NCBI GenBank assembly: GCA_945890715.1
Contig: CAMDCX010000001.1
Span: forward strand, 13,751-77,750
DNA length: 64,000 bases
From: PVC group bacterium
Lineage (GTDB): Bacteria > Verrucomicrobiota > Kiritimatiellia > CAIKKV01 > CAITUY01
Direction of reading: 5' to 3'
A model generated the notes under the pieces. That model had not been told where the DNA came from. It saw nothing but the letters and a program-made list of their open reading frames with translations, and did no database searches. The position numbers and the translations under genes were made by a program. Shown here one piece after another: positions 1 through 28,703 of the stretch. Positions within the stretch are counted from its first letter, which is position 1. Every line of letters begins with the position of its first letter.

Positions 1-345
1 GACGGCATTCTGGCAGCGGCCACCGAGGTGAAGGGGATGAAGCTGATGGCCGTGGCTGTCGGTGAGGTCTCGCCCGAAGCGCTCAAAACTCTGGCCGAGG
101 CGGCGATGGCGAAGGCCGGGTCGGCCGTGGTGGTGTTGGGTGCCAGCCATGCCGGCAAGGCGCAGTTTATTGTGGCGGTCAGTCCCGACCTGGTGAAGCA
201 GGGGGTCCACGCCGGGAAAATTATCAAGGAAGTGGCCAAGGTGGCAGGTGGCGGGGGTGGCGGACAACCCGCCCTGGCGAATGCCGGAGGCAAGGATGTC
301 AGCAAGATTGCCGAGGCGGTCGAGAAGGCCAGGGCGTTGCTGTGA
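1..345 (+). CDS. alaS: Alanyl-tRNA synthetase, C-terminal fragment (5' end lies upstream of the window)
   Basis: The reading frame is open from base 1. The translation (…[44 protein letters not shown]…) matches the AlaRS C-terminal DHHA1/oligomerisation region, including its glycine-rich tail. Confidence 0.75.
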
Positions 346-369
346 GATGTGAAACGTGAGACGTGAGGA

Positions 370-732
370 GTGCACATGAGTGTGGAAATCATCTGCGCGG
401 GGTGTGGACAGGAAAGTCTTCTGAGGCGGGAGCCTGTTTATGAGGGGTTCAAGAAGGTGGGGGAGATTCTAACCTGTGCCGCTTGCGGACATGACTATGC
501 TTCCGAGGAGGAGGTGCCGTTCAAGCAGAAGGCGGCGCCTCAAGTCTTTGATGCCAGTGATGCCCCTCGGACCATCAAGGTTTTCCGCGAGAACGAAGCG
601 GAGACCCTTTGTCGCCACTGCAAACACTTTGTGGTGAACCCGTTTCTTCAGCGTTGCGGCAGGCATGCCAAGAGTGTGGAAGCCACCGATTCGTGCCGCG
701 ATTTCGAGAAGAAGCCTGTGCCGAAGCTCTAG
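370..732 (+). CDS. Small cysteine-rich hypothetical protein with a double zinc-ribbon
   Basis: The 119-120 aa ORF has two CxxC…CxxC modules (CAGCG…CAACG; CRHCK…C…C). A GAGGAG Shine-Dalgarno sits just upstream of the ATG pair at 370/376. No recognisable family. Confidence 0.5.
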   Translation: MHMSVEIICAGCGQESLLRREPVYEGFKKVGEILTCAACGHDYASEEEVPFKQKAAPQVFDASDAPRTIKVFRENEAETLCRHCKHFVVNPFLQRCGRHAKSVEATDSCRDFEKKPVPKL

Positions 733-861
733 AAGATGGCCCGCGATCTCCGAGCGCGGGGATCTCCGGCTTGACTCCCGTTGCCTGTCAATGGCACGAT
801 GCCCGCGCTTTTTTATGGGGGTCATGTGAAGTCGAGTCGGCGCGAAAATATTGAAACATTC

Positions 862-2001
862 ATGGTGGACTTGATTCAGAGGAAGGATACCTCGCGGATC
901 AAGGATCGGCGTGTGTTACTGCTGCTTTGGACGCTTCGTCAATTTTCCCGTGTGTTCAATGTCATCGTCAAGACCCGTCATCTGCTCTATGCCCACGGGA
1001 TTATCCGCCATCACACGCTTGGCTGCCAGGTCATCAGCATTGGAAATGTCACGGTAGGGGGGACGGGAAAGACGCCGGTTGTGGAAGTGTTTGCCCGTTC
1101 GCTTCAAAAGAAGGGGCGGAAAGTCGCCATTCTCAGCCGTGGGTATAAGAAAAAAGAGCTCCCGCTGGCGGAACGCCTGGTGAATAAGCTTTTGCTCCGC
1201 GAAACCCGGATTCCGCCGCGAGTGGTATCGGATGGGAAAAACCTGCTTCTGGATTCCGATATGGGCGGTGATGAGCCTTACATGCTGGCGTCCAATCTGA
1301 CGGATGTGGCCGTGCTGGTGGACAAGGATCGCGTCAAGAGCGGACGCTATGCCATCAACCGGTTTGGGTGTGACACCCTGGTTTTGGATGACGGGTTTCA
1401 GTATCTGGCGTTGAAGCATCATGTTGAAATTGTGCTGGTGGACAGCAAGAACCCCTTTGCCAACGGCTTTATGTTGCCGCGCGGACTTCTTCGGGAGGAT
1501 GTTCGTAATCTCGCGCGTGCTCACTATATTTTCATCACCAAATGCGACGGAAGCGATAACACCGCCCTGAAGGCCGAACTCCGGAAATTGAACGCCAAGG
1601 CTGAAATGATCGAGTGCACCCACAAAGCCCGTTACCTGACGAATGTGTTCACCACCGCTCGCGAGGAACTGTCCTTCCTTCAGGGACGATCAGTCGCGGC
1701 CGTGTCTGGAATTGCCGCGCCGGGTGGTTTTGAACGGGAACTCGAGCGGTTGGGTGCCCGTCTGACTCAGCGGGTGCAATTTGCCGACCATCACCGTTAT
1801 ACCCAGCAGGAGATCATCGAGGTCATCAACAGTGCGCGCGACAGCGGGGCCGAGGCGATTATGACGACCGAAAAGGATGCGGTACGGTTTCCGCGGCTTG
1901 ACCGGTGCGATCTGCCGATCTATTTTCTGAGGGTGGATATTGAATTGTTATCCGGGAGTGAGGACTTCAATGCCTGTATCGCCCGAATTTGTTTCCATTA
2001 A
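862..2001 (+). CDS. lpxK: Tetraacyldisaccharide 4'-kinase
   Basis: P-loop GNVTVGGTGKTP lies about 60 aa from the proposed ATG at 862, with LpxK-like architecture throughout. The longer ORF from 781 is probably an over-extension. Confidence 0.8.
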   Translation: MVDLIQRKDTSRIKDRRVLLLLWTLRQFSRVFNVIVKTRHLLYAHGIIRHHTLGCQVISIGNVTVGGTGKTPVVEVFARSLQKKGRKVAILSRGYKKKELPLAERLVNKLLLRETRIPPRVVSDGKNLLLDSDMGGDEPYMLASNLTDVAVLVDKDRVKSGRYAINRFGCDTLVLDDGFQYLALKHHVEIVLVDSKNPFANGFMLPRGLLREDVRNLARAHYIFITKCDGSDNTALKAELRKLNAKAEMIECTHKARYLTNVFTTAREELSFLQGRSVAAVSGIAAPGGFERELERLGARLTQRVQFADHHRYTQQEIIEVINSARDSGAEAIMTTEKDAVRFPRLDRCDLPIYFLRVDIELLSGSEDFNACIARICFH

Positions 2002-3037
2002 AGCGGCGCCTCATGGCGTCGGATCGGCCCGGATCCTGATCGTCGGGCTCAGTTGGCTGGGGGATGGTATCATGGCCATGCCGGCCCTGGCGGCCTTTCG
2101 GAAGCGCCTTCCCGGCGTCCATATCACCATGCTGGCCAAACCCTCGGTCGCATCGTTGTGGTCGATTTTTCCAGGCGTGGACGATGTGATTTTGCTCAAG
2201 AAGGGTTTTGTCGGAATGCGCGACACCATTCGGGCGGTTCGAAAAGGCGGTTTTGATTTTGCCTATATCCTGCCGAAATCATTCCGAACCGCCTGGATTC
2301 CCTTTCTAGCGGGCATTCCCGGACGGCGTGGGCTGTCTGGAAACGGCCGGGGCTGGATGTTGACGGAGACTGCTGCATTATCGGAGGCGGCAGTGTGCGG
2401 GCACCAGTCCCTCGAAATCGCCGATGTACTTCAACTTTCCCATGGGGATTTGGAATTGCCTCCGTTTTTGATGGTTTCTGACGAGATTCGTAAGCGGATA
2501 CGAAACCGGGTGGACACATTTCAGGGCGGAGTAGAGGAAGGTAAGTTGATCGCTTTTTTCCCCGGTGCGGCGCATGGTCCATCCAAACGCTGGCCCGCCG
2601 GAAATTTTGCCGCTGTGGGGCGCAGGTTGGTTTCGGAGCCGGGGTGTCGCCTGCTGATTCTGGGGAGTCGGGGCGACAAGGTTGTCTGTGATGAAGTCGC
2701 CGCCGGGATCGGGGACGGTGCGGTGAATCTGGCGGGAGAGACGGATTTTCTGGAACTGATCGGTTTGCTCAGCCTGTGCCGGTGTGTCGTGGCCAATGAT
2801 AGTGGCGGGATGCATTTGGCGGCGGGGCTTGGCGTTCCCGTGATCGGACTCTTCGGGTTGACGGATCCTTCCAAGACGGCTCCCGTTGGAACCCGCCACA
2901 CGCTTTTATGTGCAGAAGGAGTCCGCCAGTCACGGGATATTGACCCGGATTCCCCGGAGGCTCGATCAGCTATCGCCTCCATTTCCGTTGACGCCGTCCT
3001 GGGTGCCGTTGCAAGGGTGGTCGCGGGGTCTGTTTAA
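1970..3037 (+). CDS. ADP-heptose:LPS heptosyltransferase (GT9 family, WaaF/RfaF-like)
   Basis: N-terminal RILIVGLSWLGDGIMAMPAL…HITMLAKP and C-terminal VANDSGGMHLAAGLGVPVIGLFG are typical GT9 heptosyltransferase motifs. Overlaps the lpxK stop. Confidence 0.8.
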   Translation: MPVSPEFVSIKAAPHGVGSARILIVGLSWLGDGIMAMPALAAFRKRLPGVHITMLAKPSVASLWSIFPGVDDVILLKKGFVGMRDTIRAVRKGGFDFAYILPKSFRTAWIPFLAGIPGRRGLSGNGRGWMLTETAALSEAAVCGHQSLEIADVLQLSHGDLELPPFLMVSDEIRKRIRNRVDTFQGGVEEGKLIAFFPGAAHGPSKRWPAGNFAAVGRRLVSEPGCRLLILGSRGDKVVCDEVAAGIGDGAVNLAGETDFLELIGLLSLCRCVVANDSGGMHLAAGLGVPVIGLFGLTDPSKTAPVGTRHTLLCAEGVRQSRDIDPDSPEARSAIASISVDAVLGAVARVVAGSV

Positions 3038-3146
3038 TCTTTTTTCGCCTGTCGGCTTTTTCAGGGTATTTCCCGTAGATCAGGAGAAGAGTGTATCACG
3101 CGAAGACGATCGTTAATACCAGGAATGGACGCACTCCTTTCGCTTT

Positions 3147-5501
3147 TTATCGTGGCCCGACATTGATCGTCAGGTTACCTGCTTGGGCCAAGGAAGCCTG
3201 ATAGGGTGTCATGGCCAGGTCATCAATGATTAAACGGTTATGTTCAGCAGGTTCGACGAATCTCATGAGAATATACAGGCGATTTCTTTTTTTGATCGAA
3301 AACGCGAACTCCTCACAGATGCGCGAACCCGCCTTGAAGGTCTTCGTCAAATGTGTTCGGCCACCCTCCCGAATGACCAATTCAATATCTGAATCTCCAT
3401 GGATCTCCGCCCGGAATCGAAGGGCATAATCATGCTCGCCAACGGGTATTGGATCCATCAATGTAGCCCAACAATACTCAGGGTGAATGTCCCAGCCATT
3501 GGGTGTGATTAGAGGATATGAAATAATCCCGCCACGGTTAACTTGCTTCGCACGGCTTCCCGTTACTTCTTGGACGGCTCGAGGCCAGCGTTCCGCGCGG
3601 CAGAGATTGGAATAGTCCAGCAGGGACAATGGACGCGACGTGTCTCCGAACGCCCACATGAAGGCGTGATGGGGAATTGTTCGCTCCCATTTTTGCGCCG
3701 TCCACAGGGGGAAGTACGTGGCATTATCCGGAGACGTGCGATTAAGGAAAATAACTCCCGCAGTCAAGACGACGACTCCATATTGCAGAACGACAGGAAT
3801 CTTCCGGAAAAGCCAGAGAAAGGCCAGGAGGGCTGTTCCGCCCATCACTATCCACGGGAAAGCAGTTCCGGGCGGCAACAGGAAGCGAGGGAGGGGCGAA
3901 AGCAAGAAGTGGAAATCGCCAACGATGTGGGGGTCATGCAATGCACGTAAATCAGGATAGACCGACAGGAGGAAACAAAACATGTTCATGGAAAAGAAAC
4001 CGAGAAAGAAAATCACCAGGCGAAATCCAGGAGCTGCCACATCGAGAACCACTGCTAGAACCCCCATTAGGATGGGAACGGTGACGAGGAGAAATCGTCC
4101 CGGCAATGTCGCCCCTCCCCACCAGTCAGAGGCAGAACAAGATGTCAGCCAAATGCTCATGAAACAAAGCAAGGCCAGGAAAGCATGGGCGCGATGCCGT
4201 GAGTATTGAAGCAGTCCAATCGTGCCCAGGAGAGCGCAGGAAAAAACGGGAAACGCCACCAGGATTCCCTTGGAGGAGGTCAGGACGTGCCACAGACCCG
4301 AGGGACTAGCCATGAGAAAGGCCGATACGGGAGCCACCGTCCCTCCGATGAACATCCGGTACTGATTCAGGTAGAGCAACGTCCACACGGCAAGAATGAG
4401 AGCCGCGAACATGGACAATCGTGGTAATCCGCGTCGCCATGGACTGGACAAGTAGAGACACTGGACGCCATAGGCGCCCGCAAGGGTCATGGCCAGCGGG
4501 ATAAAGCGGACATAGGCCCACGGCAATGCCCCGATGCACGGGACGGCTAGCAAGAGAGCGTGAACGGGGTGCGTCCTCTGCAGCACTATGGCGACGAATC
4601 CATAAACGGCTAGCGTTCCGCCAAGGACTTCCGGGAGAGCACGGCAGGAGTAAATACCCCAGAACGTGCTGCCGCCCATCAGGATGGCAACAGCCCAACC
4701 TCCCCGTCTGGATGCGCCCAGCAAACGAGCCAATAGATAGGTGCCCGCGAGGCCTAGACCGGCAATTATGCCAAGCACGAGATGTCTGGCGTACAGCCCG
4801 TGTTCACTGGTCGGAGCTAATAGGATACACAGAACTGACGAATGCAAGGAATACCACTTTCCGTTTCGCGAATTCGGGCTGATATGTGTGCGCTCGGAGA
4901 AATCTTCCGCGGCGACATCGCCGAGGTTGTTCCGCAGGTCCAGATCCCCATCGTCGTGGAGGCTTTTTGCCTGGATGAGATAGTGCCCCTCATCGCCGGA
5001 GTGCTCGCCGACGGTCTTTGTGATCCAGACCCCCAGCAGGCAAAACAGGATCGATCCTGCTGCGAACAGGATTATCCAATCCTTGCCACGGCAATCTCTT
5101 TCTCCGCAAGAGGTTACGCTAAAGGCTTTCACAGCGGCAGCAGACAGGATGCATGACGGAATGAAGATATGGAGAAAGGCGCTGAGGTGCGGATGCCATG
5201 GGAGCCCCAGTAAGCCTAAGGAGGGAAGCAGGGCGAGCCATTTGAGCCATGCGTTAATCTTGCCGAATTGCCCTGTTTTCCCACAGCACTGGGCAACACA
5301 ATACCCGATGAACAGAATCGCGCTTACCACCACAAATGTGCTGTACAGGTAAGGCAAGGAAATTAACACCCGGCCGGGAAATTCACGAAAAACAACAACG
5401 CCTTCGCCAAGAAACGGCGTCACGATCCACAGCCCCAGAAAAAGAGACATCCACAGCAAGCCAGCCATCTTACTCCATAATTGTCGTAGACACGTATGCA
5501 A
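3147..5501 (-). CDS. Large polytopic membrane protein, GT-C-like (ArnT/PMT-type) putative glycosyltransferase with a soluble C-terminal domain
   Basis: 784 aa with more than 12 predicted hydrophobic helices, followed by a roughly 230-aa hydrophilic C-terminal domain. Sits beside LPS-core genes. Family assignment is tentative. Confidence 0.45.
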   Translation of the reverse strand: MHTCLRQLWSKMAGLLWMSLFLGLWIVTPFLGEGVVVFREFPGRVLISLPYLYSTFVVVSAILFIGYCVAQCCGKTGQFGKINAWLKWLALLPSLGLLGLPWHPHLSAFLHIFIPSCILSAAAVKAFSVTSCGERDCRGKDWIILFAAGSILFCLLGVWITKTVGEHSGDEGHYLIQAKSLHDDGDLDLRNNLGDVAAEDFSERTHISPNSRNGKWYSLHSSVLCILLAPTSEHGLYARHLVLGIIAGLGLAGTYLLARLLGASRRGGWAVAILMGGSTFWGIYSCRALPEVLGGTLAVYGFVAIVLQRTHPVHALLLAVPCIGALPWAYVRFIPLAMTLAGAYGVQCLYLSSPWRRGLPRLSMFAALILAVWTLLYLNQYRMFIGGTVAPVSAFLMASPSGLWHVLTSSKGILVAFPVFSCALLGTIGLLQYSRHRAHAFLALLCFMSIWLTSCSASDWWGGATLPGRFLLVTVPILMGVLAVVLDVAAPGFRLVIFFLGFFSMNMFCFLLSVYPDLRALHDPHIVGDFHFLLSPLPRFLLPPGTAFPWIVMGGTALLAFLWLFRKIPVVLQYGVVVLTAGVIFLNRTSPDNATYFPLWTAQKWERTIPHHAFMWAFGDTSRPLSLLDYSNLCRAERWPRAVQEVTGSRAKQVNRGGIISYPLITPNGWDIHPEYCWATLMDPIPVGEHDYALRFRAEIHGDSDIELVIREGGRTHLTKTFKAGSRICEEFAFSIKKRNRLYILMRFVEPAEHNRLIIDDLAMTPYQASLAQAGNLTINVGPR

Positions 5502-17208: not shown

Positions 17209-19011
17209 TCAACTGTGAGCCGAACCGCCCGGTTGATACTCTGGTAGACGGATGAGGAAGGTGGTGCCCGCGCCCGGCTGGCTTTGGGCGGTGATCGTTC
17301 CCCCGTGTTGTTGGACGATCTTCTGGCAGACCGCGAGTCCGATTCCCGACCCTGGATACTGATCTTCTGAATGAAGCCGCTGGAAGGGTTTGAAAATTTG
17401 TTCAACATGCTTCTCGTCGAAACCGATCCCATTGTCCCGTATCCGGATCTCAATCAGGCCCTTGCCGGGGCTCCGGCTCGAGACGCAGACGCGCGGGGCA
17501 CAGCCGGGCGTGACAAATTTAAGGGCATTGCCGATAAGATTCAGGAACAGTTGATACAATTGCAGTTGATCGCCCAGTACTGTCGGCAGGATCCCGACCT
17601 CCACCGCGGCTCCTGTTTCCTTGATGCGGGGTGCTAAATCTTCAAGGGCCTGATTGACCGGATTCGACAAGGCCACAGGAAAGAACACCCGGTCGCCTTT
17701 ATTCACGCGGGCGTACATCAGGAGCCCCTGAATTAATTGCTGCATGCGCTGGGAGGATTTTTCAATGTGACTCAGAAAATCACGCGCCGTGTCCGGCAGG
17801 GCGGCCGCGCACTCTTCGCGAAGGAGTTCGCTGAAGCCGATGATCCGTCGCAGGGGGGCTTGTAAATCATGCGAGGCGATGTAGGCAAACTGATCGAGCT
17901 CGGCATTTGACCGGGCCAGTTCCTCCGACTTTCGAAAGACTTCAGCTTCTGCTTGTTGGCGAAGACTGATCAAGCGGGCGTTTGTAAGGCTAAGGGCGCA
18001 CAGGCTGACAATATCAAGGGCCAGATTAAGGTAGTCCTGACCGTGATGCGGCAAGGTGATCGTGTCGGCGATCACAAATCCCAAGGTTGCATTCTGGTAT
18101 TTGACACGTACGGAAAACCCGCTTTCCGTCATGGCGGAAGTCTCATCGGGTCTGAACCGTGCCATCCAGGCCTCTATCCATTCGGCATCATCAGGTTTCG
18201 GGAAGTTGCTGTAGATTCTTTTTGTCTGACCCCCATCAGGCGAAACATAGGCCACGCGCTCGGCTCCAAACAGCATGGTGAAAAGCTCGAGTATGGCCTG
18301 GATCGCGTCTTCCTCATTCATAATCCGCGTCAATTTCACCAACAGATCCATGGCTAGCACATGGTCGGCCAGTTTCTTGTTGGCACGCGCGAATTCCTCT
18401 TTCACCAGAAGCTCGGCTTCACGGGTGCGCCACGCCTGGACAAGATAACTCAGAATGAGTCTGAAATGGTCCAGTCCCACGGACATGACTTCGGTCGGAA
18501 GTCCAAGGTATTCGGCGCAATCGTGCAGGCGGGTCTGAGCCTCCGGATCGACGCCGGTATCAAGCAGAACCATGCGGCGTGCGCCTTCGGCAAAAAACAT
18601 TCGTGCTGTTTCCCGGTCAAACTGCCAGGCGTCAATATGCTGTTGCCAGTGTTCCAGCCAACCGGAGGTGACCAGGTGCGATCCGTCACAAAGACACCGG
18701 TCAATGGTCGTCTTGTTGATAAGCATATGAAAGCATAATTCCTCCCGGTGAATCCGGTGATACCGGTCCTCGGACAAGGCCGTTTTATTCTGGTTCAGGA
18801 GGTAGCAGGCCCCGACCAGAATAGTGGTCTGTCCATTTTTTCCCGAGTCATAAAACTGGTGTGTCAGCGTCGCCGTCAGATCCGCCCGGGGGCGAACACA
18901 GAGATCGGGAAATGCCGAGACGCTGACGTTTTCAAAGCCTTCGGATTGGAGGATGACCTGTGCTTCCTTGAGGTAGTACTGGCAGACGAGGAGATGGAGA
19001 CTGGGAGGCAT
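17209..19011 (-). CDS. Cytoplasmic sensor histidine kinase: uncharacterised Cys-containing N-terminal domain, then a GAF/PAS-like region, HisKA and HATPase_c
   Basis: H-box is FAYIASHDLQAPLRRI, and the C-terminal G-boxes include GSGIGLAVCQKIV. No TM segments. The approximately 200-aa N-terminal domain (…LLVCQYYLKEAQVIL…ILVGACYLLNQ…) has no assignable fold. The proposed ATG at 19011 lies 4 nt after the stop of the upstream URO-D-like gene. Confidence 0.8.
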   Translation of the reverse strand: MPPSLHLLVCQYYLKEAQVILQSEGFENVSVSAFPDLCVRPRADLTATLTHQFYDSGKNGQTTILVGACYLLNQNKTALSEDRYHRIHREELCFHMLINKTTIDRCLCDGSHLVTSGWLEHWQQHIDAWQFDRETARMFFAEGARRMVLLDTGVDPEAQTRLHDCAEYLGLPTEVMSVGLDHFRLILSYLVQAWRTREAELLVKEEFARANKKLADHVLAMDLLVKLTRIMNEEDAIQAILELFTMLFGAERVAYVSPDGGQTKRIYSNFPKPDDAEWIEAWMARFRPDETSAMTESGFSVRVKYQNATLGFVIADTITLPHHGQDYLNLALDIVSLCALSLTNARLISLRQQAEAEVFRKSEELARSNAELDQFAYIASHDLQAPLRRIIGFSELLREECAAALPDTARDFLSHIEKSSQRMQQLIQGLLMYARVNKGDRVFFPVALSNPVNQALEDLAPRIKETGAAVEVGILPTVLGDQLQLYQLFLNLIGNALKFVTPGCAPRVCVSSRSPGKGLIEIRIRDNGIGFDEKHVEQIFKPFQRLHSEDQYPGSGIGLAVCQKIVQQHGGTITAQSQPGAGTTFLIRLPEYQPGGSAHS

Positions 19012-19015
19012 GATG

Positions 19016-20062
19016 TTAGATCCAATCAAGGGGGTAGCGGCCCCAGCGGCGAACCGCATCCGCGATAGTGAGCAGGACGGAATCCGGAACCTGCCAGGGA
19101 ATTTCCCCATGGTTATCTGTTAAAACAAATCCGCCGCCCGGCCCGGCTTTTGCGATCGCCTCCTTGACCCTGATCTCGGCCTCGGCGGGAGTCCAGTGCC
19201 GCATTTCGATCGCATTCAAATTGCCCATAACGGTAAGCCGTCCCCGGGCTGCGGCCTTGACAGCGGCCAGATCTTCCAGAAAACTGGCTCCGATCCCGAC
19301 GGTGCCCGTTTGAACGACATCATCGAGAATTGCCAGGCAACGGCCGGAGGCAAAGCTGGTTGCAACGGCTCCTTTGATTTTCGACAATGTTCTTCTGGCG
19401 ATCAGGAACCCTGTTTTCAGGTATAGTGCCCGGGGAATGATGGTGGGGGACGATACCGGGTCGGCATACGCGATGGCTCCTGCGCCCGCCTCCAGTTGTG
19501 CGTTGGCCCACTCCACGCAAAAGGCTTCGTTCAGGCGCATGAGTTGCTCAAACCGTTCTGGTTGTTCGTGGAGTAAAAGCAGGTAATTCTCGAAACCCAA
19601 CTGCATGACCGGCAGTGAAAAGGGCGAAATCACCGAGCCGAACACGGGGACCTCGTTGCCCGCCCGGTCCTTCAGGAGACGAATGAGACGCAGCACTTTC
19701 TGCAGGCAGGGGGTATCGCGCACCCGGGGCGGTTCAAGGCGGGCGATGTCCGCCGATCCTGACAGGGGCGGTTGGCCTGCATTGGGCGGGCCATCTTCCC
19801 GATAGATCACTTCACCTCCCCACGCCTCAGCCTCCACAGCCCCATACATGAAACCGAGCAGGGCATCATGTCCATAGCGGACGCGGAGTCGCCACTGGCC
19901 TTCCGCCACGAGATCCGGCCGGCTGAAGTAGTCCCGGATTGAGAGGCCGAATTCCCTCGCGCCCTGCATGACGGTGGGAAGCAGGAAGGGAACGCGATCC
20001 GGTTCCCTGTGGGACATCGCCGTGCTGAGGCGTTCCGAGGAGGTCATGGACTCCGGTTTCAT
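19016..20062 (-). CDS. Uroporphyrinogen-decarboxylase-family protein (MtaA/CmuA-like corrinoid methyltransferase homolog)
   Basis: N-terminus ERLSTAMSHREPDRVPF…, typical of the URO-D/MtaA superfamily. 348 aa. Start overlaps the upstream corrinoid-protein stop by 4 nt. Confidence 0.75.
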   Translation of the reverse strand: MKPESMTSSERLSTAMSHREPDRVPFLLPTVMQGAREFGLSIRDYFSRPDLVAEGQWRLRVRYGHDALLGFMYGAVEAEAWGGEVIYREDGPPNAGQPPLSGSADIARLEPPRVRDTPCLQKVLRLIRLLKDRAGNEVPVFGSVISPFSLPVMQLGFENYLLLLHEQPERFEQLMRLNEAFCVEWANAQLEAGAGAIAYADPVSSPTIIPRALYLKTGFLIARRTLSKIKGAVATSFASGRCLAILDDVVQTGTVGIGASFLEDLAAVKAAARGRLTVMGNLNAIEMRHWTPAEAEIRVKEAIAKAGPGGGFVLTDNHGEIPWQVPDSVLLTIADAVRRWGRYPLDWI

Positions 20063-20748
20063 GGTAGAACCCCCGCTAATCGTGAAATGGCCGCAATGGC
20101 ATCGGATGCCGTGTTGCCGAAGGCGTCCGCTCCGACCTCTTTCCAGAGCTCTTCATCAAAGCGGAAAGGGGCGCCTCCTACTACAATTAGCGGGACGCAC
20201 CCCTTTGCCTGAAGCCGTGTGCGGAGCTCTTTGATCCGAAGCGCCGCCGGCAGCATGAGTGCGGAGAGAAGCAGAATACGAATCCCGTCGGTCTTGATGT
20301 GGGCGACCAGTTGGTTCATGTCGGTTCGTCCATAATTTCGCAACGAAAACCCGCTCGCCCGCAATGTCGAGTATACAATTCTCAAGCCCAGCAAATGATA
20401 ATCTTCAAGGGCTGCGATTGCCAGCGGCGGCATGCTTTTCCGGGTGTCATCGGAGGGGGGGAGAATGGCGTCAACCGCTTCCTCGCAAAGGCGACCGCTC
20501 ATGTATACCTGAGACAAGGAAACGCTCCCTTCCTCCCAGCCGACGCCAATCCGCTCCAGGGCCGGAACAATCAGGCTCTCGATTCTTGTGAGCGGTGAAG
20601 GCGAAGCGGAGGCTTCCGACAGCACGCGGTTGACGGTCACCCTGTCAAGCGACAGGAGAGCACTCTCCAGTTGATCCAACGGCGACTCCATGGCGTTCTC
20701 TTTTTGCTCGCTCCTATTACTCGGAACGTATTCCAGCCCGCCGGGCAA
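20059..20748 (-). CDS. Cobalamin (B12)-binding corrinoid protein, MtaC/MtbC-like, with His-on ligation motif
   Basis: Four-helix cap N-terminus followed by a Rossmann-like B12-binding domain. The DxHxxG (DYHLLG), SxL (LLSAL) and GG (VVGGAPF) motifs are all present. An alternative start at 20691 (MESPLD) is possible. Confidence 0.75.
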   Translation of the reverse strand: MPGGLEYVPSNRSEQKENAMESPLDQLESALLSLDRVTVNRVLSEASASPSPLTRIESLIVPALERIGVGWEEGSVSLSQVYMSGRLCEEAVDAILPPSDDTRKSMPPLAIAALEDYHLLGLRIVYSTLRASGFSLRNYGRTDMNQLVAHIKTDGIRILLLSALMLPAALRIKELRTRLQAKGCVPLIVVGGAPFRFDEELWKEVGADAFGNTASDAIAAISRLAGVLP

Positions 20749-20858
20749 ACCTGTAATCAGCTTCTCGATCTGAAACTACGCGCAATTCAAGTGTTTGTCA
20801 GCTATTTTTATTTTGACTTTTATCCGTCACTGCCAACTGGTATTGTCCGATTAAAGCC

Positions 20859-22007
20859 ATGAGTAAAATTCTCAAAGCCCTGATTGTCGAGGATTCTGAG
20901 TGTGATGCACTCCTGCTGTTAGGGCACCTGAAGCGGGGAGGGTACGATACGACATCCCTTCGCGTCGATAATGCTTCTGATCTTGTGGCAGCATTAAGCG
21001 AAAGAGAATGGGACATTGTTTTTTCAGATCACAACATGCCGCAATTCACCTCCATTGAGGCCCTGGAGCTTGTGCGCGCCCGCGATCCGGACATTCCTTT
21101 CCTGATTGTTTCCGGGAGCATCGGGGAAGATGTGGCGGTGGCGTCCATGAAGGCGGGAGCCCAGGACTATCTGATGAAGGGCAACCTGACCCGTCTTGTA
21201 TCGGCCGTTGATCGCGAGTTGAAGGATGCCGGGGATCGCCGCGCACGCAAGGTGGCGGAGCATGCACTTTTGGCGCGTGAGGAGGAACTCAGAATCGCCC
21301 GCGAAGTTCAACAGTTGCTCTTCCCGATTTCCATGCCTGTCATCGGCGGTTACGATATCGCGGGCGCCTCTTGCCCGGCGGACGCCACAGGCGGTGACTA
21401 CTACGATGTTATCGTCCGTCCGAATCACGATATTTATGTGATTGTCGGGGATGTGACCGGGCATGGGCTCGGGCCGGCCCTGCTCATGACCGATGTTCGG
21501 GCATACCTCAGGGCACTTGTCCTGGAGGACAGATCCCTCGAGGATCTCATGACTCTGGTGCGTCACCTCCTGCTTGAAGATCTTGGAAACGACCGGTTTA
21601 TCACCATGGTGATCGCCCGGTTCACTCCCGGAGAGGGTGTCATGGATGTGATTAATGCGGGGCATCCAACGGGCTATATTCTTGCGCCTGGAGGCGGGAT
21701 AAAAACGGAACTGAATGCCACTGTTCCAGCCTTGGGTGTTGACGCCGAGGTGGATCGACTTGAGTCCTGCAAGGTCCGGCTGGAAGCAGGAGAACTGGCT
21801 GTATTCCTGACGGATGGGATTCTCGAGGCGTGTTCACCGGCTGGCGAGGAGTTCGGGGTGCCGCGCCTGCTTGGGATTCTCCAGCGCGAAAGGGACCGGC
21901 CCGCCGCTGAAATCATCAGGATTCTCTTCGATGAAGTGCGCAAGTTTGGTTCCCCGGAAGGGATTCAGGACGATATCACTGCGGTGATCATCAAACGCTC
22001 GTCCTAA
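20859..22007 (+). CDS. Response regulator with PP2C/SpoIIE-type Ser/Thr phosphatase output (RsbU-like)
   Basis: REC domain has the ALIVEDSECD acidic pocket and phospho-acceptor IVFSDHNMP. The PP2C domain has GGDYYDV…GDVTGHGLGPALLM. Transcribed divergently from the histidine-kinase operon. Confidence 0.85.
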   Translation: MSKILKALIVEDSECDALLLLGHLKRGGYDTTSLRVDNASDLVAALSEREWDIVFSDHNMPQFTSIEALELVRARDPDIPFLIVSGSIGEDVAVASMKAGAQDYLMKGNLTRLVSAVDRELKDAGDRRARKVAEHALLAREEELRIAREVQQLLFPISMPVIGGYDIAGASCPADATGGDYYDVIVRPNHDIYVIVGDVTGHGLGPALLMTDVRAYLRALVLEDRSLEDLMTLVRHLLLEDLGNDRFITMVIARFTPGEGVMDVINAGHPTGYILAPGGGIKTELNATVPALGVDAEVDRLESCKVRLEAGELAVFLTDGILEACSPAGEEFGVPRLLGILQRERDRPAAEIIRILFDEVRKFGSPEGIQDDITAVIIKRSS

Positions 22008-24481: not shown

Positions 24482-24549
24482 GATTATGATGAAGATATGG
24501 TATACATGATCGGTCTGTATTTCTTATTTATAAGGAGATGAGGTGTTTT

Positions 24550-25737
24550 ATGCCGATTGAACTAGCTAAAGGGGTTTACTGGGTGGGTGTGACCGATTGG
24601 GGCATCCGTCATTTTCACGGGTTTGAGCTCTCGGTTCATCGTGGAACGACTTATAATTCCTATCTCATTATGGATGAGAAAATTGCTTTGGTGGATACCG
24701 TTTGGTCGCCCCATTCGGAGGAATTCCTTGCCCGGGTCAGGGAATTGGTGGATCCCGCCAAGATTGATTATGTGGTGGTGAATCATGCGGAGCCGGACCA
24801 TTCCAGCAGTTTGCCCGCTCTGATGAAGCTATGCCCCAATGCCACAGTGGTGGTTTCCAAAAATGGGGCCACCAGTGTTCCCGGGCATTATCATGAAAAC
24901 TGGAATTTCAAAGCCGTCAAAACCGGGGATCGGATCAGCTTGGGCAAAAATGAACTGGTTTTTGTCGAGGCGACGATGCTGCACTGGCCGGACACTATGT
25001 TCTGCTACCTGACCGGGGAACAGATCCTGATGTCGAATGATGCCTTCGGTCAGCACTATGCCACGGCTTTTCTGTTCAACGATCTGGTCAATCAGGAGGA
25101 ACTGTATGAGGAGGCGTTGAAATATTTTGCCAATATTTTAACCCCCTACACAGATAAGATCTTGAAGAAAATTGACGAAATTCTGGCTCTGAACCTTCCG
25201 GTCAAGATGATTGCGCCGAGTCATGGGGTGATCTGGCGTCAGGATCCTCTCCAGATCGTTAAGCAATACCAGGAATGGTCCCTGCAGAAACCGGCTCCCA
25301 CGGCGGTGGTTTTGTATGACACCATGTGGCGTGCCACCGAAAAGATGGCAAAGGCGATTGCCGAGGGCTTGATTGAATGCGGCATCGACTGCAAGGTCTC
25401 TCACGCGGCGACTGCAGACAGCAACGACCTGATGGTGGAGATCTTTAAGGCAAAACTGGTTGTTTTGGGATCCTGTACCTATAACAATGGCATTCTTCCC
25501 TCCATGGCAAAGATTCTGGAGGAGATGCGGGGACTTCGATTCAAGAACAAGATTGGCGCCGCTTTCGGATCCTACGGGTGGAGCGGGGAGTGCGTGAAGT
25601 CCATCGAGGAAATCTTCCAGAAGTCCGGCATTCCCCTGGTGCGCTCTGGCCTTCGTGTCAAGTGGCAGCCCAGTGACGCCGATCTGCAGTTGTGTCGGGA
25701 GTTTGGACGCGAACTGGCGGCGGCGACCAAGGGCTGA
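24550..25737 (+). CDS. Flavodiiron protein (FprA/rubredoxin:oxygen oxidoreductase or NO reductase family)
   Basis: N-terminal metallo-beta-lactamase fold with a di-iron site (VVNHAEPDHSSS) and C-terminal flavodoxin fold (AVVLYDTMWRATEKMAKAIAEGL). The ATG at 24550 is preceded by AAGGAGATGAGG. Confidence 0.85.
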   Translation: MPIELAKGVYWVGVTDWGIRHFHGFELSVHRGTTYNSYLIMDEKIALVDTVWSPHSEEFLARVRELVDPAKIDYVVVNHAEPDHSSSLPALMKLCPNATVVVSKNGATSVPGHYHENWNFKAVKTGDRISLGKNELVFVEATMLHWPDTMFCYLTGEQILMSNDAFGQHYATAFLFNDLVNQEELYEEALKYFANILTPYTDKILKKIDEILALNLPVKMIAPSHGVIWRQDPLQIVKQYQEWSLQKPAPTAVVLYDTMWRATEKMAKAIAEGLIECGIDCKVSHAATADSNDLMVEIFKAKLVVLGSCTYNNGILPSMAKILEEMRGLRFKNKIGAAFGSYGWSGECVKSIEEIFQKSGIPLVRSGLRVKWQPSDADLQLCREFGRELAAATKG

Positions 25738-25740
25738 GTT

Positions 25741-27441
25741 TTAGAAAAATGCCCCGGCTAGAAGGCTTTCCGCTTCGGAAATCCATGCCTTGGAAAATTT
25801 GTTTTTCAGGGGGAACTGAATCATCACCCGCCTTGACGCGATTTTTCCCGTCAGAGCCACCGGTGCGTAACGGTCAATGAGGTGGCGGGGCTGGCTCCGA
25901 ATCACTTCGATCAGACCATCCAGTAGATCCAGCGGTTCTTCATGATCCGGGCATAGCACAAACTGGAACAGCCCGTCGGGCTCCCTTCGGATGGCGGTTC
26001 GGATATACCCCTCCAATTCTTTTCGGTGGGCGAATAGATCGGAGCCAGAAAATAGACAAGCGCACCGGGTGGAGGTAATGGCGGGCTCTATTCTGGGGTC
26101 GGAGGCTGTTACTTTAATCTGGTTTTTAAAGAGCATCAGCCGGGTTCCCGTGAATGCCCCGGTGTGAATATCCGACCGCAATTTCGGGTGGCGGGCAATC
26201 AGATGCTCAATGGCAAGGAAGTCCTCGGTATTCATGGTATCGGTTTCCGTCACTGCATAAGGGGGGTGTGTCAGCGCACGCATGCGCCATTCCTTGCGCC
26301 GGTCACGCAGTTCTGTTCCCGGCAGAAGCAACGTTTGCAGGCATTGGACATTTGTGGACGGGAGTTTCAAGGCCCAGTTTACTGATCGTCTTACATCGCC
26401 TGTGCCCTGTAGCGGAAGACCATACATAACATCCAGGGTGACTTTGATCCGGCGCCGGGTGAGGAGCCGAATTCCCGATTCCAGCTTCCCGAGTGAAGTG
26501 GGGCGACGGATTGCCTTGAGCACGGCGGGATCACGGCTTTGCAGGCCCACTTCAACATCCACAAAACGGGCCCGCGCCAGGTTGTCCGCTTGTTCTGCGG
26601 TAAGCCGTTCCGCATTGATCTCGGCAAAAAACGCCAGATTTCTGGACTGGTTCAGGTGGGCCAGACGCTGGACAATTTCGCCGAAATGCGGATGGGCGTT
26701 GAAGGAGGGATCCACGAAGCGGATTTCCTTCGCTCCGAGACGACGCAGGGCGCGAACGCGTGACAGAATGTCGTCCGGCTCCAGGAAAGACATGGACTGG
26801 CGCAGATGGGGATAGCGGCAATAGGTGCAGCGCATGGGGCAGCCCCGCGAGGCTTCGAGATAGGCCATTCCTCGGGCATCCGGTCGGCTGGCTCCATAGC
26901 CTGGGGGCGGCAGTTGATGCGACAGGCAGACGGCAGGCGGGGGCTCGGATCCCCAGCGATAGCCGTTACCGGTTCGCGTCGCCACGGTTGAATAGGGGAC
27001 GGATTTTCCGGTGCGAAAGGCGCGCAGCAGGGCCGGAAAAACAATTTCCCCTTCGCCCACCACCAGGGCATCGGCGGTTTTGTTTTTGAAAAGGAAGGGA
27101 TGGGCTCGGGCCACTTCGGGGCCGCCCAGGACGATCCGGGTTTCAGGAAGCCGATTGCGCAAAAGTCGGGCCAGTCGCAAGGTCCGTTCAATATTCCACA
27201 GGTATAGTGTTCCGGCGAGAACATCAGGGGCGAGGCGCGTCAGGGTGTTGAGCAGGGACTGGTTTCCCGCGTCCTGTTCTGATTCTGGAAGTCTGCAGAA
27301 CTCGTAATGAGCCCCTTCGCCCGCTTGTTCGGCGGCATACTGGAGGGTGGCGGCGGCCAGCGGGACATTCTCATGGTCCGCCTGGAGATCGTTATCCAGC
27401 TGGGGGAGTTGAATAAATAAAACCCTTTTCCGTTTCGGCAT
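25741..27441 (-). CDS. B12-binding-domain radical SAM protein (large, about 567 aa, function unknown)
   Basis: N-terminal B12-binding-like Rossmann segment (RVLFIQLPQLDND…), the radical SAM CPMRCTYCRY (CxxxCxxC) motif, and a long C-terminal extension. The start MPKRKRV at 27441 was verified by reverse translation. Confidence 0.7.
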   Translation of the reverse strand: MPKRKRVLFIQLPQLDNDLQADHENVPLAAATLQYAAEQAGEGAHYEFCRLPESEQDAGNQSLLNTLTRLAPDVLAGTLYLWNIERTLRLARLLRNRLPETRIVLGGPEVARAHPFLFKNKTADALVVGEGEIVFPALLRAFRTGKSVPYSTVATRTGNGYRWGSEPPPAVCLSHQLPPPGYGASRPDARGMAYLEASRGCPMRCTYCRYPHLRQSMSFLEPDDILSRVRALRRLGAKEIRFVDPSFNAHPHFGEIVQRLAHLNQSRNLAFFAEINAERLTAEQADNLARARFVDVEVGLQSRDPAVLKAIRRPTSLGKLESGIRLLTRRRIKVTLDVMYGLPLQGTGDVRRSVNWALKLPSTNVQCLQTLLLPGTELRDRRKEWRMRALTHPPYAVTETDTMNTEDFLAIEHLIARHPKLRSDIHTGAFTGTRLMLFKNQIKVTASDPRIEPAITSTRCACLFSGSDLFAHRKELEGYIRTAIRREPDGLFQFVLCPDHEEPLDLLDGLIEVIRSQPRHLIDRYAPVALTGKIASRRVMIQFPLKNKFSKAWISEAESLLAGAFF

Positions 27442-27577
27442 GGGATGCACCTTACCACAACCCGCCGCGAAAACGCGAGAGTTCGACATAGCCAAAGAAC
27501 GATTGAAACAAGGGCGATGAGGCGATATACTCGCCCGTTTTACAGTGAAATTGCTGAGCCGGAAGTGGAGTTGAACC

Positions 27578-28703
27578 GTGAATAACGATGATATAAAGGG
27601 CCGCATTCAAGAGTTGCGGGAAAAGACCGATGAAATGCGAGGTTATCTTTGACGTTGCCACCCGCCGTGCCACGTTAAGGGAATTGGAGTCTCAAACCTC
27701 CGCGCCGGATTTCTGGGAAGATCCCAATAAGGCCAAGAATCATCTGGCCAAGGTGAATGAAATCAAGGCCGTTCTCACTCCCTTTGATGAAATCGAGAAA
27801 TTCCTCGAAGAAGCCGGCGTGATGCTCGAACTTGCCGATGCCGAGGCTCCGGGTCCCGCTCGTACCCAGGCCTTGAGCGATGCCGGAAAAGATCTGGATC
27901 GCGCCGATGCCGATTTCCGGAAACTGGAGATGCAATCACTTCTGAACGCCAAATTGGACCGGAACAATGCCTTTGTTACCATTCATGCGGGCGCCGGGGG
28001 GACGGAATCCTGCGACTGGGCCAGCATGCTGTTCAGGATGTTTCAACGGTTTTGCTCCATCAAGGGGTTCGAGGTGGAAGTTCTCGATATTGCGGAAGGG
28101 GATGAGGCTGGGATCAAGTATGCCACCTTCGCCGTGCGCGGCACTTATGCTTACGGGTTCATGAAGTGTGAACGCGGGGTGCACCGGCTGGTGCGAATCA
28201 GTCCGTTCGATTCCAACAAGCGGCGCCATACCTCCTTTGCCTCATTGGATGTGATTGCCGAATTGGATGACGATATTGATATCGTGATTGAAGATAAGGA
28301 TTTGCGTGTCGATACGTTCCGGTCCAGCGGGTCGGGGGGGCAGCATGTCAATAAGACCGATTCCGCCATCCGCATTACCCATATGCCCACCGGGGTGGTG
28401 GTCTCCTGCCAGGCGGAACGTTCCCAGCATGCCAACCGGGCCAAGTGTATGAAGGTGTTGCAGTCGAAACTTTACGAACTGGAACAGGACAAGAAACGCA
28501 AGGATATGGAGCGGTTCTACGGGCAGAAGGGCGAAATTTCCTGGGGTAGCCAAATCCGGTCGTATGTGCTCCAGCCTTATACCATGGTCAAGGATCATCG
28601 GACGGATACGGAAACCAGTAATACCGCGGCCGTTCTGGATGGCGGGTTGGATATGTTTGTGGAAGCCTATTTAAAGCAGTTGAAGGCCTCGGAAAAGAAG
28701 TGA
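27578..28703 (+). CDS. prfB: Peptide chain release factor 2 with programmed +1 ribosomal frameshift
   Basis: A 24-codon leader ORF from GTG 27578 (VNNDDIKGRIQELREKTDEMRGYL) ends at CTT TGA C (27647-27653). An internal SD-like GAGG lies upstream of the shift site. The +1 frame continues DVATRRATLRELE… through the SGGQHVNKTDSAIR GGQ motif. Confidence 0.85.

Follow-up and report, generated by a model that had tools for sequence, protein, structure and literature searches.

The locus described here lies in a window of 64,000 nucleotides (nt) from a PVC group bacterium of the Verrucomicrobiota (GenBank assembly GCA_945890715.1, contig CAMDCX010000001.1, positions 13,751 to 77,750 of the forward strand), of which it occupies positions 17,209 to 22,007. 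Three genes are packed head to tail on the minus strand. In the direction of transcription they encode a corrinoid protein, a protein with the URO-D fold and a sensor histidine kinase with an N-terminal DUF1638 domain. A response regulator with a PP2C phosphatase output (REC-PP2C) is transcribed divergently from them, and is followed by a gene for an S-adenosylmethionine (SAM) methyltransferase-like protein. The features are collected in Table 1. An initial annotation of the region had read it as a B12-coupled signalling module, and this core reading stands after checks of synteny, co-variation and motif conservation that were set beforehand. On balance the three minus-strand genes probably form a three-protein corrinoid-based sensory module that feeds a two-component pathway.

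Table 1. Features of the locus, in positions of the 64,000-nt window
Feature	Coordinates	Strand	Basis
Corrinoid (cobalamin-binding) protein, 210 residues	20059..20691	-	B12-binding_2 cap and Rossmann B12-binding domain, His-on motif EDYHLLG
URO-D-fold protein, 348 residues, MtaA/CmuA-like without the MtaA zinc ligands	19016..20062	-	PF01208
DUF1638 domain of the sensor kinase, residues 1-200	18412..19011	-	PF07796, AlphaFold2 model
Long linker helix and GAF-like alpha/beta domain of the kinase, residues 201-360	17932..18411	-	AlphaFold2 secondary structure
Histidine kinase core, HisKA (residues 372-438) and HATPase_c (residues 480-592), with stop codon	17209..17931	-	PF00512, PF02518
Divergent intergenic region between cassette and REC-PP2C gene	20692..20858	.	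Sequence read
Response regulator with PP2C (SpoIIE-type) output, 382 residues	20859..22007	+	PF00072, PF07228
Probable class-I SAM methyltransferase-like protein, 261 residues	22045..22830	+	Sub-threshold Pfam matches, DLGGGTG motif

All five open reading frames (ORFs) of the initial annotation were confirmed, two of them with corrected starts. The ORF finder had called the minus-strand ORFs as 20059-20748, 19016-20062 and 17209-19110. Judged by the starts in relatives, its 633-residue kinase is over-extended; the kinase is encoded by 17209-19011 (600 residues), and begins MPPSLHLL at nt 19011 with the methionine used by all relatives in the alignment. The 229-residue corrinoid protein is likewise over-extended, the frame remaining open upstream to a TTG at 20748. 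The starts of relatives together with the sequence place its start at the ATG at 20691, and a 100% identical protein of 210 residues is present in the protein database. With these starts the 4-nt overlap and 4-nt gap originally described are exact: the ATGA at 20059-20062 is common to the stop of the corrinoid gene and the start of the URO-D gene, and nt 19012-19015 separate the URO-D stop from the kinase start. The tight packing of the three genes probably reflects translational coupling. The divergent intergenic region is 167 nt rather than the 110 bp first given, because the corrinoid protein starts at ATG 20691. It presumably holds the promoters of both directions; no match to the sigma-70 consensus was found within 20692-20858, and a scan for promoters and terminators gave counts not above those of shuffled sequence. 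Comparison with Rfam found neither a cobalamin riboswitch nor any other RNA family, whether in the window or in eight further cassette loci.

Comparison of genomes indicates that conservation is confined to the triad, and that the REC-PP2C and SAM methyltransferase-like genes are lineage-specific extras. A profile scan of species-representative genomes gave 103 relatives of the sensor, from which 80 were kept, and the window proteins were searched by phmmer against the six-frame ORFs of all loci (referred to below by L numbers). Both the corrinoid and the URO-D genes are present in 67 of the 72 informative loci (those with enough upstream sequence), in the same order and spacing and on the same strand, lying ∼1700 and ∼1050 nt upstream of the sensor respectively. 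The remaining informative loci have the corrinoid gene only (one), the URO-D gene only (one) or neither (three), so that a corrinoid gene lies upstream of the DUF1638 sensor in 68 of 72. The same order in loci from unrelated phyla excludes chance adjacency of the three genes. The recurrence that the initial annotation had suggested testing holds for the triad, but not for the REC-PP2C gene that was included in it, which is adjacent only in the lineage of the window and one sister clade. Kinase relatives were followed down to 33% identity, and every context examined was corrinoid, URO-D and sensor in otherwise unrelated neighbourhoods. In the reverse direction, corrinoid homologues of 57-59% identity, chosen only for their long contigs, lay within a full triad in three of three loci. 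Overlaps of 4 or 11 nt recur between the gene calls of cassette loci.

The triad is spread over at least 15 bacterial phyla. The carriers nearest to the window are Verrucomicrobiota and Victivallales (90-98%), with metagenome-assembled genomes of the PVC group. Others belong to Chloroflexota, Gamma-, Beta- and Alphaproteobacteria, Desulfobacterota, Geobacterales-type and Myxococcota lineages, and to Acidobacteriota, Spirochaetota, Actinomycetota, Bacteroidota, Clostridia, Hydrogenedentes, Riflebacteria, Poribacteria and Ignavibacteriota-type lineages (among which we have assumed that the Melioribacteraceae belong). Cultured carriers are Thiocapsa roseopersicina DSM 217, Oscillochloris trichoides DG6, Geomonas sp. 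Red32, Rubrivivax sp. A210 and Dethiosulfatarculus sandiegensis. Most carriers are anaerobes or anoxygenic phototrophs. The sensor is incompletely annotated in places. In one of the three loci of the reverse search the public gene call cut off the DUF1638 N-terminus: in L091 (6600-9281) the call starts at 6990 and misses a DUF1638 domain encoded in the open frame from 6600 (E = 4.7e-40). Where starts are clipped in this way, automated annotation could miss members of the family.

The co-variation of kinase, corrinoid and URO-D proteins that the initial annotation had proposed examining is present: pairwise identities in one protein of the triad correlate with those in the others (Mantel r = 0.47-0.63, p = 0.001), which fits joint inheritance. 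Clustering of the flanking ORFs of ∼80 loci gave no other conserved neighbour, only assorted signalling proteins recurring. No second methyltransferase, RamA-like activase or catabolic or substrate-specific gene was conserved near the cassette in that clustering, nor were genes of B12 uptake or biosynthesis conserved next to it. Where the URO-D gene is lacking, the corrinoid gene still lies immediately upstream of the sensor, which supports the link between these two. This is so in L051 and L053 (Hydrogenedentes), and in L071 (4609-10600) and L083 (6585-12600) of the Anaerolineae, where a second corrinoid gene is accompanied by a DUF1638/GAF-like kinase that has no URO-D gene of its own.

The corrinoid protein comprises two domains, matching PF02607 (B12-binding_2, E = 2.9e-12) and PF02310 (B12-binding, E = 2.4e-12), both above the gathering score. 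Its closest relatives in the PDB are MttC (E = 7e-14), MtmC and the corrinoid protein of the Desulfitobacterium hafniense O-demethylase (4jgi). The assignment as a His-on cobalamin-binding protein was borne out, since in alignment with these three EDYHLLG falls on DxHxxG, SALM on SxL and VGGAPF on GG, and in 69 orthologues the conservation of each motif is at least 95%. The protein is accordingly predicted to bind its cobamide base-off/His-on. Against TIGR02370 it scores 63.4 bits (cut-off 215.3), and all the specific NCBIfam equivalogs are far under their cut-offs. Because the scores lie so far below every curated cut-off, the protein belongs to a subfamily apart from the curated families of methyltransferase-cognate corrinoid proteins. 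Nor was a placement between MT1 and MT2 genes found, a single methyltransferase-like gene being conserved beside the corrinoid gene (70+ loci).

The second protein matches PF01208 over its full length (E = 1.5e-50), and has the URO-D TIM-barrel fold. The initial annotation had placed it in the URO-D/MtaA family. The fold is upheld and MtaA is the best PDB relative, a profile of 45 orthologues matching MtaA (4ay7) at E = 1.9e-19 and HemE at E = 2.8e-16, but the protein falls far below the family cut-offs. It scores 93.3 bits against TIGR01463 (MtaA/CmuA; cut-off 235.4), 80 bits against the MtaA equivalog (cut-off 400) and 35.6 bits against TIGR01464 (HemE; cut-off 303). What we take to be the zinc-binding motif of MtaA is H-x-C...C, of which the H-x-C pair was found in the alignment of 4ay7. 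There LHICG faces SFASG (F-x-S) in the window protein, while the C-terminal Cys region of MtaA aligns with a HemE-like DNHGE. Across the orthologues a near-invariant Ser, inside a conserved ASGR, takes the place of the Cys, and the His is no more than a majority residue in the family profile and is absent from the window protein. The catalytic Asp of HemE presumably sits in FSDIL, and this segment faces a non-acidic yaav/ygav. A canonical MtaA is thus rejected on its missing zinc ligands and its score, and a HemE decarboxylase on its score and the unmatched Asp. By sequence the protein sits between the two; it is not a decarboxylase, and not a canonical MT2 of the thiol-methylating kind. It is the best conserved member of the triad, with a median identity of 58% and a minimum of 48% across phyla (67 orthologues).

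The third protein is a soluble histidine kinase, as had been proposed, and its core matches HisKA (PF00512, E = 1.5e-14) and HATPase_c (PF02518, E = 4.7e-29). The core is intact: the H-box SHDLQAPL contains H381, and the alignment of relatives also shows the N, G1, F and G2 boxes (NLIGNALKF, DNGIGF and GSGIGL). The N-terminal domain had seemed to match no sensor fold that could be named, and comparison with Pfam families including DUF1638 was suggested. DUF1638 was indeed matched (PF07796, E = 1.4e-11, 45 bits against a cut-off of 27, residues 61-184), so that residues 1-200 can now be named. The AlphaFold2 model of this domain (predicted local distance difference test score 90) has an alpha/beta fold, for which a structure search gave no close fold in the PDB. 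Four cysteines (C10, C38, C69 and C93) are near-invariant, and the model places them at or just past the C-terminal ends of strands 1-4 of a flavodoxin-like subdomain. The following section, a long linker helix and a further domain (residues ∼201-360), co-occurs with DUF1638 in essentially all of the 80 loci. Neither Pfam nor NCBIfam has a model that matches this extra domain, either alone or in the whole 355-residue sensor module, and a 73-sequence profile of it gave no PDB match even at E = 10. It is judged to be GAF-like from its predicted topology.

DUF1638 appears in the searchable literature in two contexts only. In Phaeobacter inhibens a DUF1638 gene (PGA1_c13340) adjoining the B12-binding piece of a three-piece methionine synthase is required for methionine synthesis, together with a RamA-like protein; its function was explicitly left open (Price et al. 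2018, PMC5764234). Stand-alone DUF1638 proteins co-occur with RamA-like reductive activases (PMC5764234). In Ruegeria a DUF1638 protein is co-induced with a glycine-betaine corrinoid system, and is ‘predicted’ to help recharge cobalamin (PMC12478193). It is because the stand-alone protein is needed with a separate B12-binding protein in P. inhibens that DUF1638 is tied here to corrinoid proteins.

The kinase is intact in the window, but as a signalling unit it proves to be just one of several outputs on the same sensor module. DUF1638 was identified by Pfam in 65 of 66 genome-derived sensors, whose C-terminal parts contain HATPase_c (38), HisKA (31), GGDEF (12), HD-GYP (1) and SpoIIE (1), as well as PAS arrays and REC. 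A HMMER search with kinase residues 1-200 against 1.84 billion cluster representatives gave 1050 clusters (50% identity) at E ≤ 1e-3, of which 841 were at E ≤ 1e-10. The best 150 of the 1050 are mostly of 400-1150 residues, with the domain N-terminal in nearly all. Every second one of these 150 was compared with Pfam, giving DUF1638 in 76 of 76, with HATPase_c in 48, REC in 10, GGDEF in 8 and HD-GYP in 1. A search with the N-terminal 360 residues gave 23 clusters, nearly all with DUF1638, HisKA and HATPase_c. Since one N-terminal module is joined to many alternative outputs (histidine kinases, GGDEF, HD-GYP, PP2C, PAS/REC arrays and the Cys/His motif described below), its architecture marks the DUF1638/GAF-like unit as a putative sensory input module with interchangeable outputs. 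Because these outputs include diguanylate cyclases and PP2C phosphatases, the upstream corrinoid and URO-D genes would be parts of the sensor, not targets of regulation.

Around ten short DUF1638/GAF-like proteins (406-447 residues) lack a kinase or cyclase and end in a conserved Cys/His motif, LPICxxCKKIRDDxGYWxxxExYxxxHSxAxFSHGxCPxC. It lies in the C-terminal ∼50 residues, which have no Pfam match, and looks like a small output module of zinc-ribbon type. These members are found in L030, L036, L049, L051, L053, L054, L059, L065, L076 and L086, and also in P0019. A separate arrangement occurs in L039 (Geomonas sp. Red32), where a second unit (30-4194) lies ∼6.6 kb upstream of the triad with an unfused DUF1638 beside a kinase. 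It comprises a URO-D-like gene (30-1163), a stand-alone DUF1638 protein of 204 residues (1132-1746) that overlaps it, and a GAF-PAS-HK-REC hybrid kinase (1756-4194).

In the best reading of the triad, the URO-D-like enzyme sets the state of the cobalt on the corrinoid protein and DUF1638 reads it. The corrinoid protein, with its cobamide bound base-off/His-on, would be the signal carrier. The URO-D-like protein would act on the protein-bound cobalt, since members of its fold family dock onto corrinoid proteins (MtaA) or bind tetrapyrroles (HemE), and would most likely methylate or demethylate it, with a small molecule as the methyl donor or acceptor. The kinase, through its DUF1638/GAF-like module, would then dock onto the corrinoid protein and distinguish methyl-Co(III) from Co(I)/Co(II). 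The change of state would be relayed to the DHp/CA core along the long helix and through the GAF-like domain, altering autophosphorylation, and in the organism of the window the phosphoryl group would go to the divergently encoded REC-PP2C regulator. We infer all the mechanistic steps beyond gene content and conservation, namely methyl transfer by the URO-D-like protein, the contact of DUF1638 with the corrinoid protein, the reading of its state and the pairing of kinase and regulator. Roughly apportioned within such a module, methylation is a tentative first choice for the sensed variable; the redox state of the cobalt or of a cluster is rather unlikely, and corrinoid availability and light are each a good deal less likely again. 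Stated in full, it is possible that the URO-D-like enzyme ‘writes’ a methylation mark on the corrinoid cobalt in response to a metabolite, which the Cys4 DUF1638/GAF-like module ‘reads’, so driving, across 15 or more phyla, outputs such as histidine kinases, cyclic di-GMP enzymes and PP2C phosphatases.

The REC-PP2C protein is likely to be the cognate partner of the kinase in the lineage of the window. It has the receiver and SpoIIE/PP2C domains of partner-switching regulators of the RsbU/SpoIIE type, matching PF00072 (E = 1e-14) and PF07228 (E = 4.2e-41), and its translation has the receiver positions filled, with the acidic pair in VEDSECD, the acceptor Asp in FSDHNMP and the Lys in DYLMKG. 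The gene is divergent from the cassette in L001, L010 and L011, lies downstream on the same strand in L003/L012 and is not adjacent in most other loci. Among other cassettes of the histidine kinase type, a REC gene lies directly downstream in L008, L013, L066 and L073, and there is none in L004. No STAS-domain or anti-sigma kinase partner was found among the ten flanking genes scanned.

The gene that follows, described initially as a SAM methyltransferase, is methyltransferase-like and has the DLGGGTG motif, but its matches to class-I methyltransferase models of Pfam are all sub-threshold (Methyltransf_23, 23.3 bits against 27) and NCBIfam gives none. It is found beside the cassette only in L001, L010 and L011, and its link to the cassette is uncertain. 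The other neighbours in the window are housekeeping genes, encoding PheS/PheT, Dtd, Nramp, NUDIX, a sugar-nucleotide dehydratase, a flavodiiron-type protein, a B12-binding radical SAM protein, RF-1, YicC, Gmk and TatD. The flavodiiron-type protein (ODP/metallo-beta-lactamase and flavodoxin; 24538-25737) and the next gene lie 2.5-5 kb from the cassette. That next gene encodes the B12-binding radical SAM protein (25741-27606), at a distance of ∼5 kb. L001, the 98%-identical relative, has both genes as well; elsewhere they are not conserved with the cassette. Many long ORFs within 17209-22007 run antisense to the real genes (for example 21024-21665, 18361-18738 and 17953-18357), and are taken to be frame shadows typical of DNA of 57% G+C, not genes.

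Several points weigh against a module in which methylation is written and read. Lacking the H-x-C zinc ligands and scoring so far below the MtaA/CmuA cut-off, the URO-D-like protein may transfer no methyl groups at all. The four conserved Cys in the model of DUF1638 could mean that the domain itself binds a metal or cluster and is the primary sensor. The pairing of the kinase with REC-PP2C is drawn from adjacency in two clades only, and the Mantel correlation could arise from shared ancestry alone. No fusion of a corrinoid protein to DUF1638 was found among the best 120 of 3322 corrinoid-protein homologues, and a few sensors have no partners nearby, with orphan sensors in L061 and L073.

The least improbable of the alternatives is a redox or oxygen sensor, which we consider rather unlikely. 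Here the signal would be the oxidation state of the cobalt, or that of a metal or Fe-S centre on the DUF1638 cysteines, or both, and the URO-D-like protein would only set or reset the cofactor. Co(I) is easily oxidised to Co(II), the cysteines are suitably placed in the model, and the carriers are for the most part anaerobes or anoxygenic phototrophs. The co-occurrence of stand-alone DUF1638 with reductive activases and the flavodiiron-type gene near the cassette in the window point in the same direction. When the DUF1638 model was compared by Foldseek, HdrB (5odc_B) stood among otherwise generic matches, with an E value of 0.035 and a probability of 0.44. The Cys-rich flavodoxin-like domains of HdrB bind non-cubane Fe-S clusters. 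The resemblance fits the four conserved cysteines of DUF1638, though it is not significant, and metal binding by the domain is putative. The redox scheme also leaves the high conservation of the URO-D-like protein unexplained. It is a variant of the cobalt-state model proposed above rather than a true alternative.

Less likely is a metabolic operon with an attached regulator. In this case the corrinoid protein and the URO-D-like enzyme would carry out real methyl transfer, and DUF1638 would be a maintenance or reactivation factor fused to the regulating kinase. The closest relatives of the corrinoid protein are indeed methyltransferase-cognate, and the sole genetic data on DUF1638 are metabolic. 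Set against these are the lack of a conserved second methyltransferase, RamA-like activase or substrate-specific gene nearby, the missing ligands for the zinc of thiol methylation and the unrelated genomic contexts of the cassettes. Furthermore, GGDEF, HD-GYP and PP2C outputs do not directly regulate an operon.

B12-binding domains serve as photoreceptors in CarH and AerR, and a cobalamin light sensor would photolyse the Co-C bond of methyl- or adenosyl-cobamide, DUF1638 detecting the photoproduct and the URO-D-like enzyme restoring the dark state. This is very improbable. The corrinoid protein has weak similarity to the B12-binding GGDEF protein 8j2y (E = 1.4e-7) and to AerR (E = 2e-4), and there are phototrophs among the carriers (Thiocapsa, Oscillochloris, Viridilinea and Rubrivivax), but many others are anaerobes of sediment and groundwater (Syntrophales, Desulfobacterota and Geobacterales), and the closest relatives are methyltransferase corrinoid proteins and not CarH. 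The signature of light-responsive B12 photoreceptors comprises GxxW, EH, GxxH and GxxxP (PMC11796333). In the corrinoid protein of the window GxxW is present as GVGW, EDYH stands in place of GxxH, and the EH position is occupied by a conserved VY, which excludes a photoreceptor of the CarH type. The EH element is presumed to lie ten residues after the signature Trp, a placement taken from CarH. Finally, a sensor of corrinoid availability, in which the module would report apo versus holo corrinoid protein or the lower ligand and regulate B12-related physiology, is just as improbable, for while the cassette has a dedicated B12-binding protein, no cobalamin riboswitch in the loci compared with Rfam and, at 5 kb in the window, a neighbouring gene for a B12-binding radical SAM protein, the scheme gives no role to the highly conserved URO-D-like enzyme, and no genes of B12 uptake or biosynthesis are conserved beside it.

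Known B12-dependent regulation takes one of two routes: riboswitches, or proteins (photoreceptors and antirepressors) whose B12 domain contacts the effector directly. If the cobalt-state reading of the cassette is correct, it would provide a third and mechanistically different route. The cassette would be new in kind, with a corrinoid protein, an enzyme and a reader domain forming the front end of a signalling pathway. It is widespread (∼100 species-level genomes in a single scan, and ∼1000 clusters at 50% identity that match the DUF1638 domain), sharply defined and apparently undescribed. DUF1638, for which there has so far been only a genetic requirement for a split methionine synthase, would gain a role. 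It would be a general reader of corrinoid-protein state, or docking domain, that acts in metabolic methyltransferase systems also, and a new sensory input domain for two-component and cyclic di-GMP signalling in anaerobes and phototrophs. Since several of the carriers are in culture, the hypothesis is directly testable.

The searchable full-text literature contains no description of a corrinoid/URO-D/DUF1638-sensor cassette, in agreement with the initial annotation, to which no characterised system of this architecture was known. Public annotations refer to its members as ‘methanogenic corrinoid protein MtbC1’, ‘cobalamin-binding protein’ and ‘signal transduction histidine kinase’. Its parts do resemble those of known systems. 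The corrinoid protein has the same two-domain build and the same DxHxxG, SxL and GG motifs as those of the MtaC/MtaA, MtmC/MttC/MtbA and O-demethylase systems, and like MtaC its gene is paired and translationally coupled with that of a URO-D-fold partner, for which MtaA is the closest PDB match. Unlike those systems, the cassette has no substrate-specific MT1 or RamA nearby, its URO-D protein lacks the zinc ligands, both proteins fall below the NCBIfam cut-offs and the third gene encodes a signalling protein. With the split methionine synthase of P. inhibens it shares a DUF1638 protein beside a stand-alone B12-binding protein of cap and Rossmann domains. There, however, DUF1638 is a stand-alone protein of ∼200 residues with a biosynthetic function, whereas here it is N-terminal in signalling proteins and followed by a GAF-like domain, and a URO-D-like partner takes the place of the MetH pieces.

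Among regulatory systems, CarH/LitR, AerR/PpaA and the B12-GGDEF proteins (8j2y) similarly use a B12-binding domain as the receiver of a signal. In these the B12 domain is fused to the effector or binds it directly and no enzyme is needed, whereas in the cassette a DUF1638 reader and a URO-D-like enzyme would be obligatory partners. In systems of the H-NOX/HnoK type a stand-alone cofactor-binding sensor is encoded beside a histidine kinase or diguanylate cyclase. By analogy, a small tetrapyrrole-binding protein encoded in the operon would control a soluble kinase or cyclic di-GMP enzyme in the cassette also, and again with varied outputs. The differences are that the cofactor is a corrinoid and not haem, that there is an additional enzyme, and that the signalling protein would carry a dedicated docking domain. 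The MsmS/RdmS kinases of Methanosarcina use their own haem/GAF sensor and regulate methyltransferase expression. As in the cassette, the kinase gene adjoins corrinoid/methyltransferase (fusion) genes, but these kinases have no DUF1638 and the corrinoid protein is their target, while in the cassette, as read here, the corrinoid protein would be the sensor.

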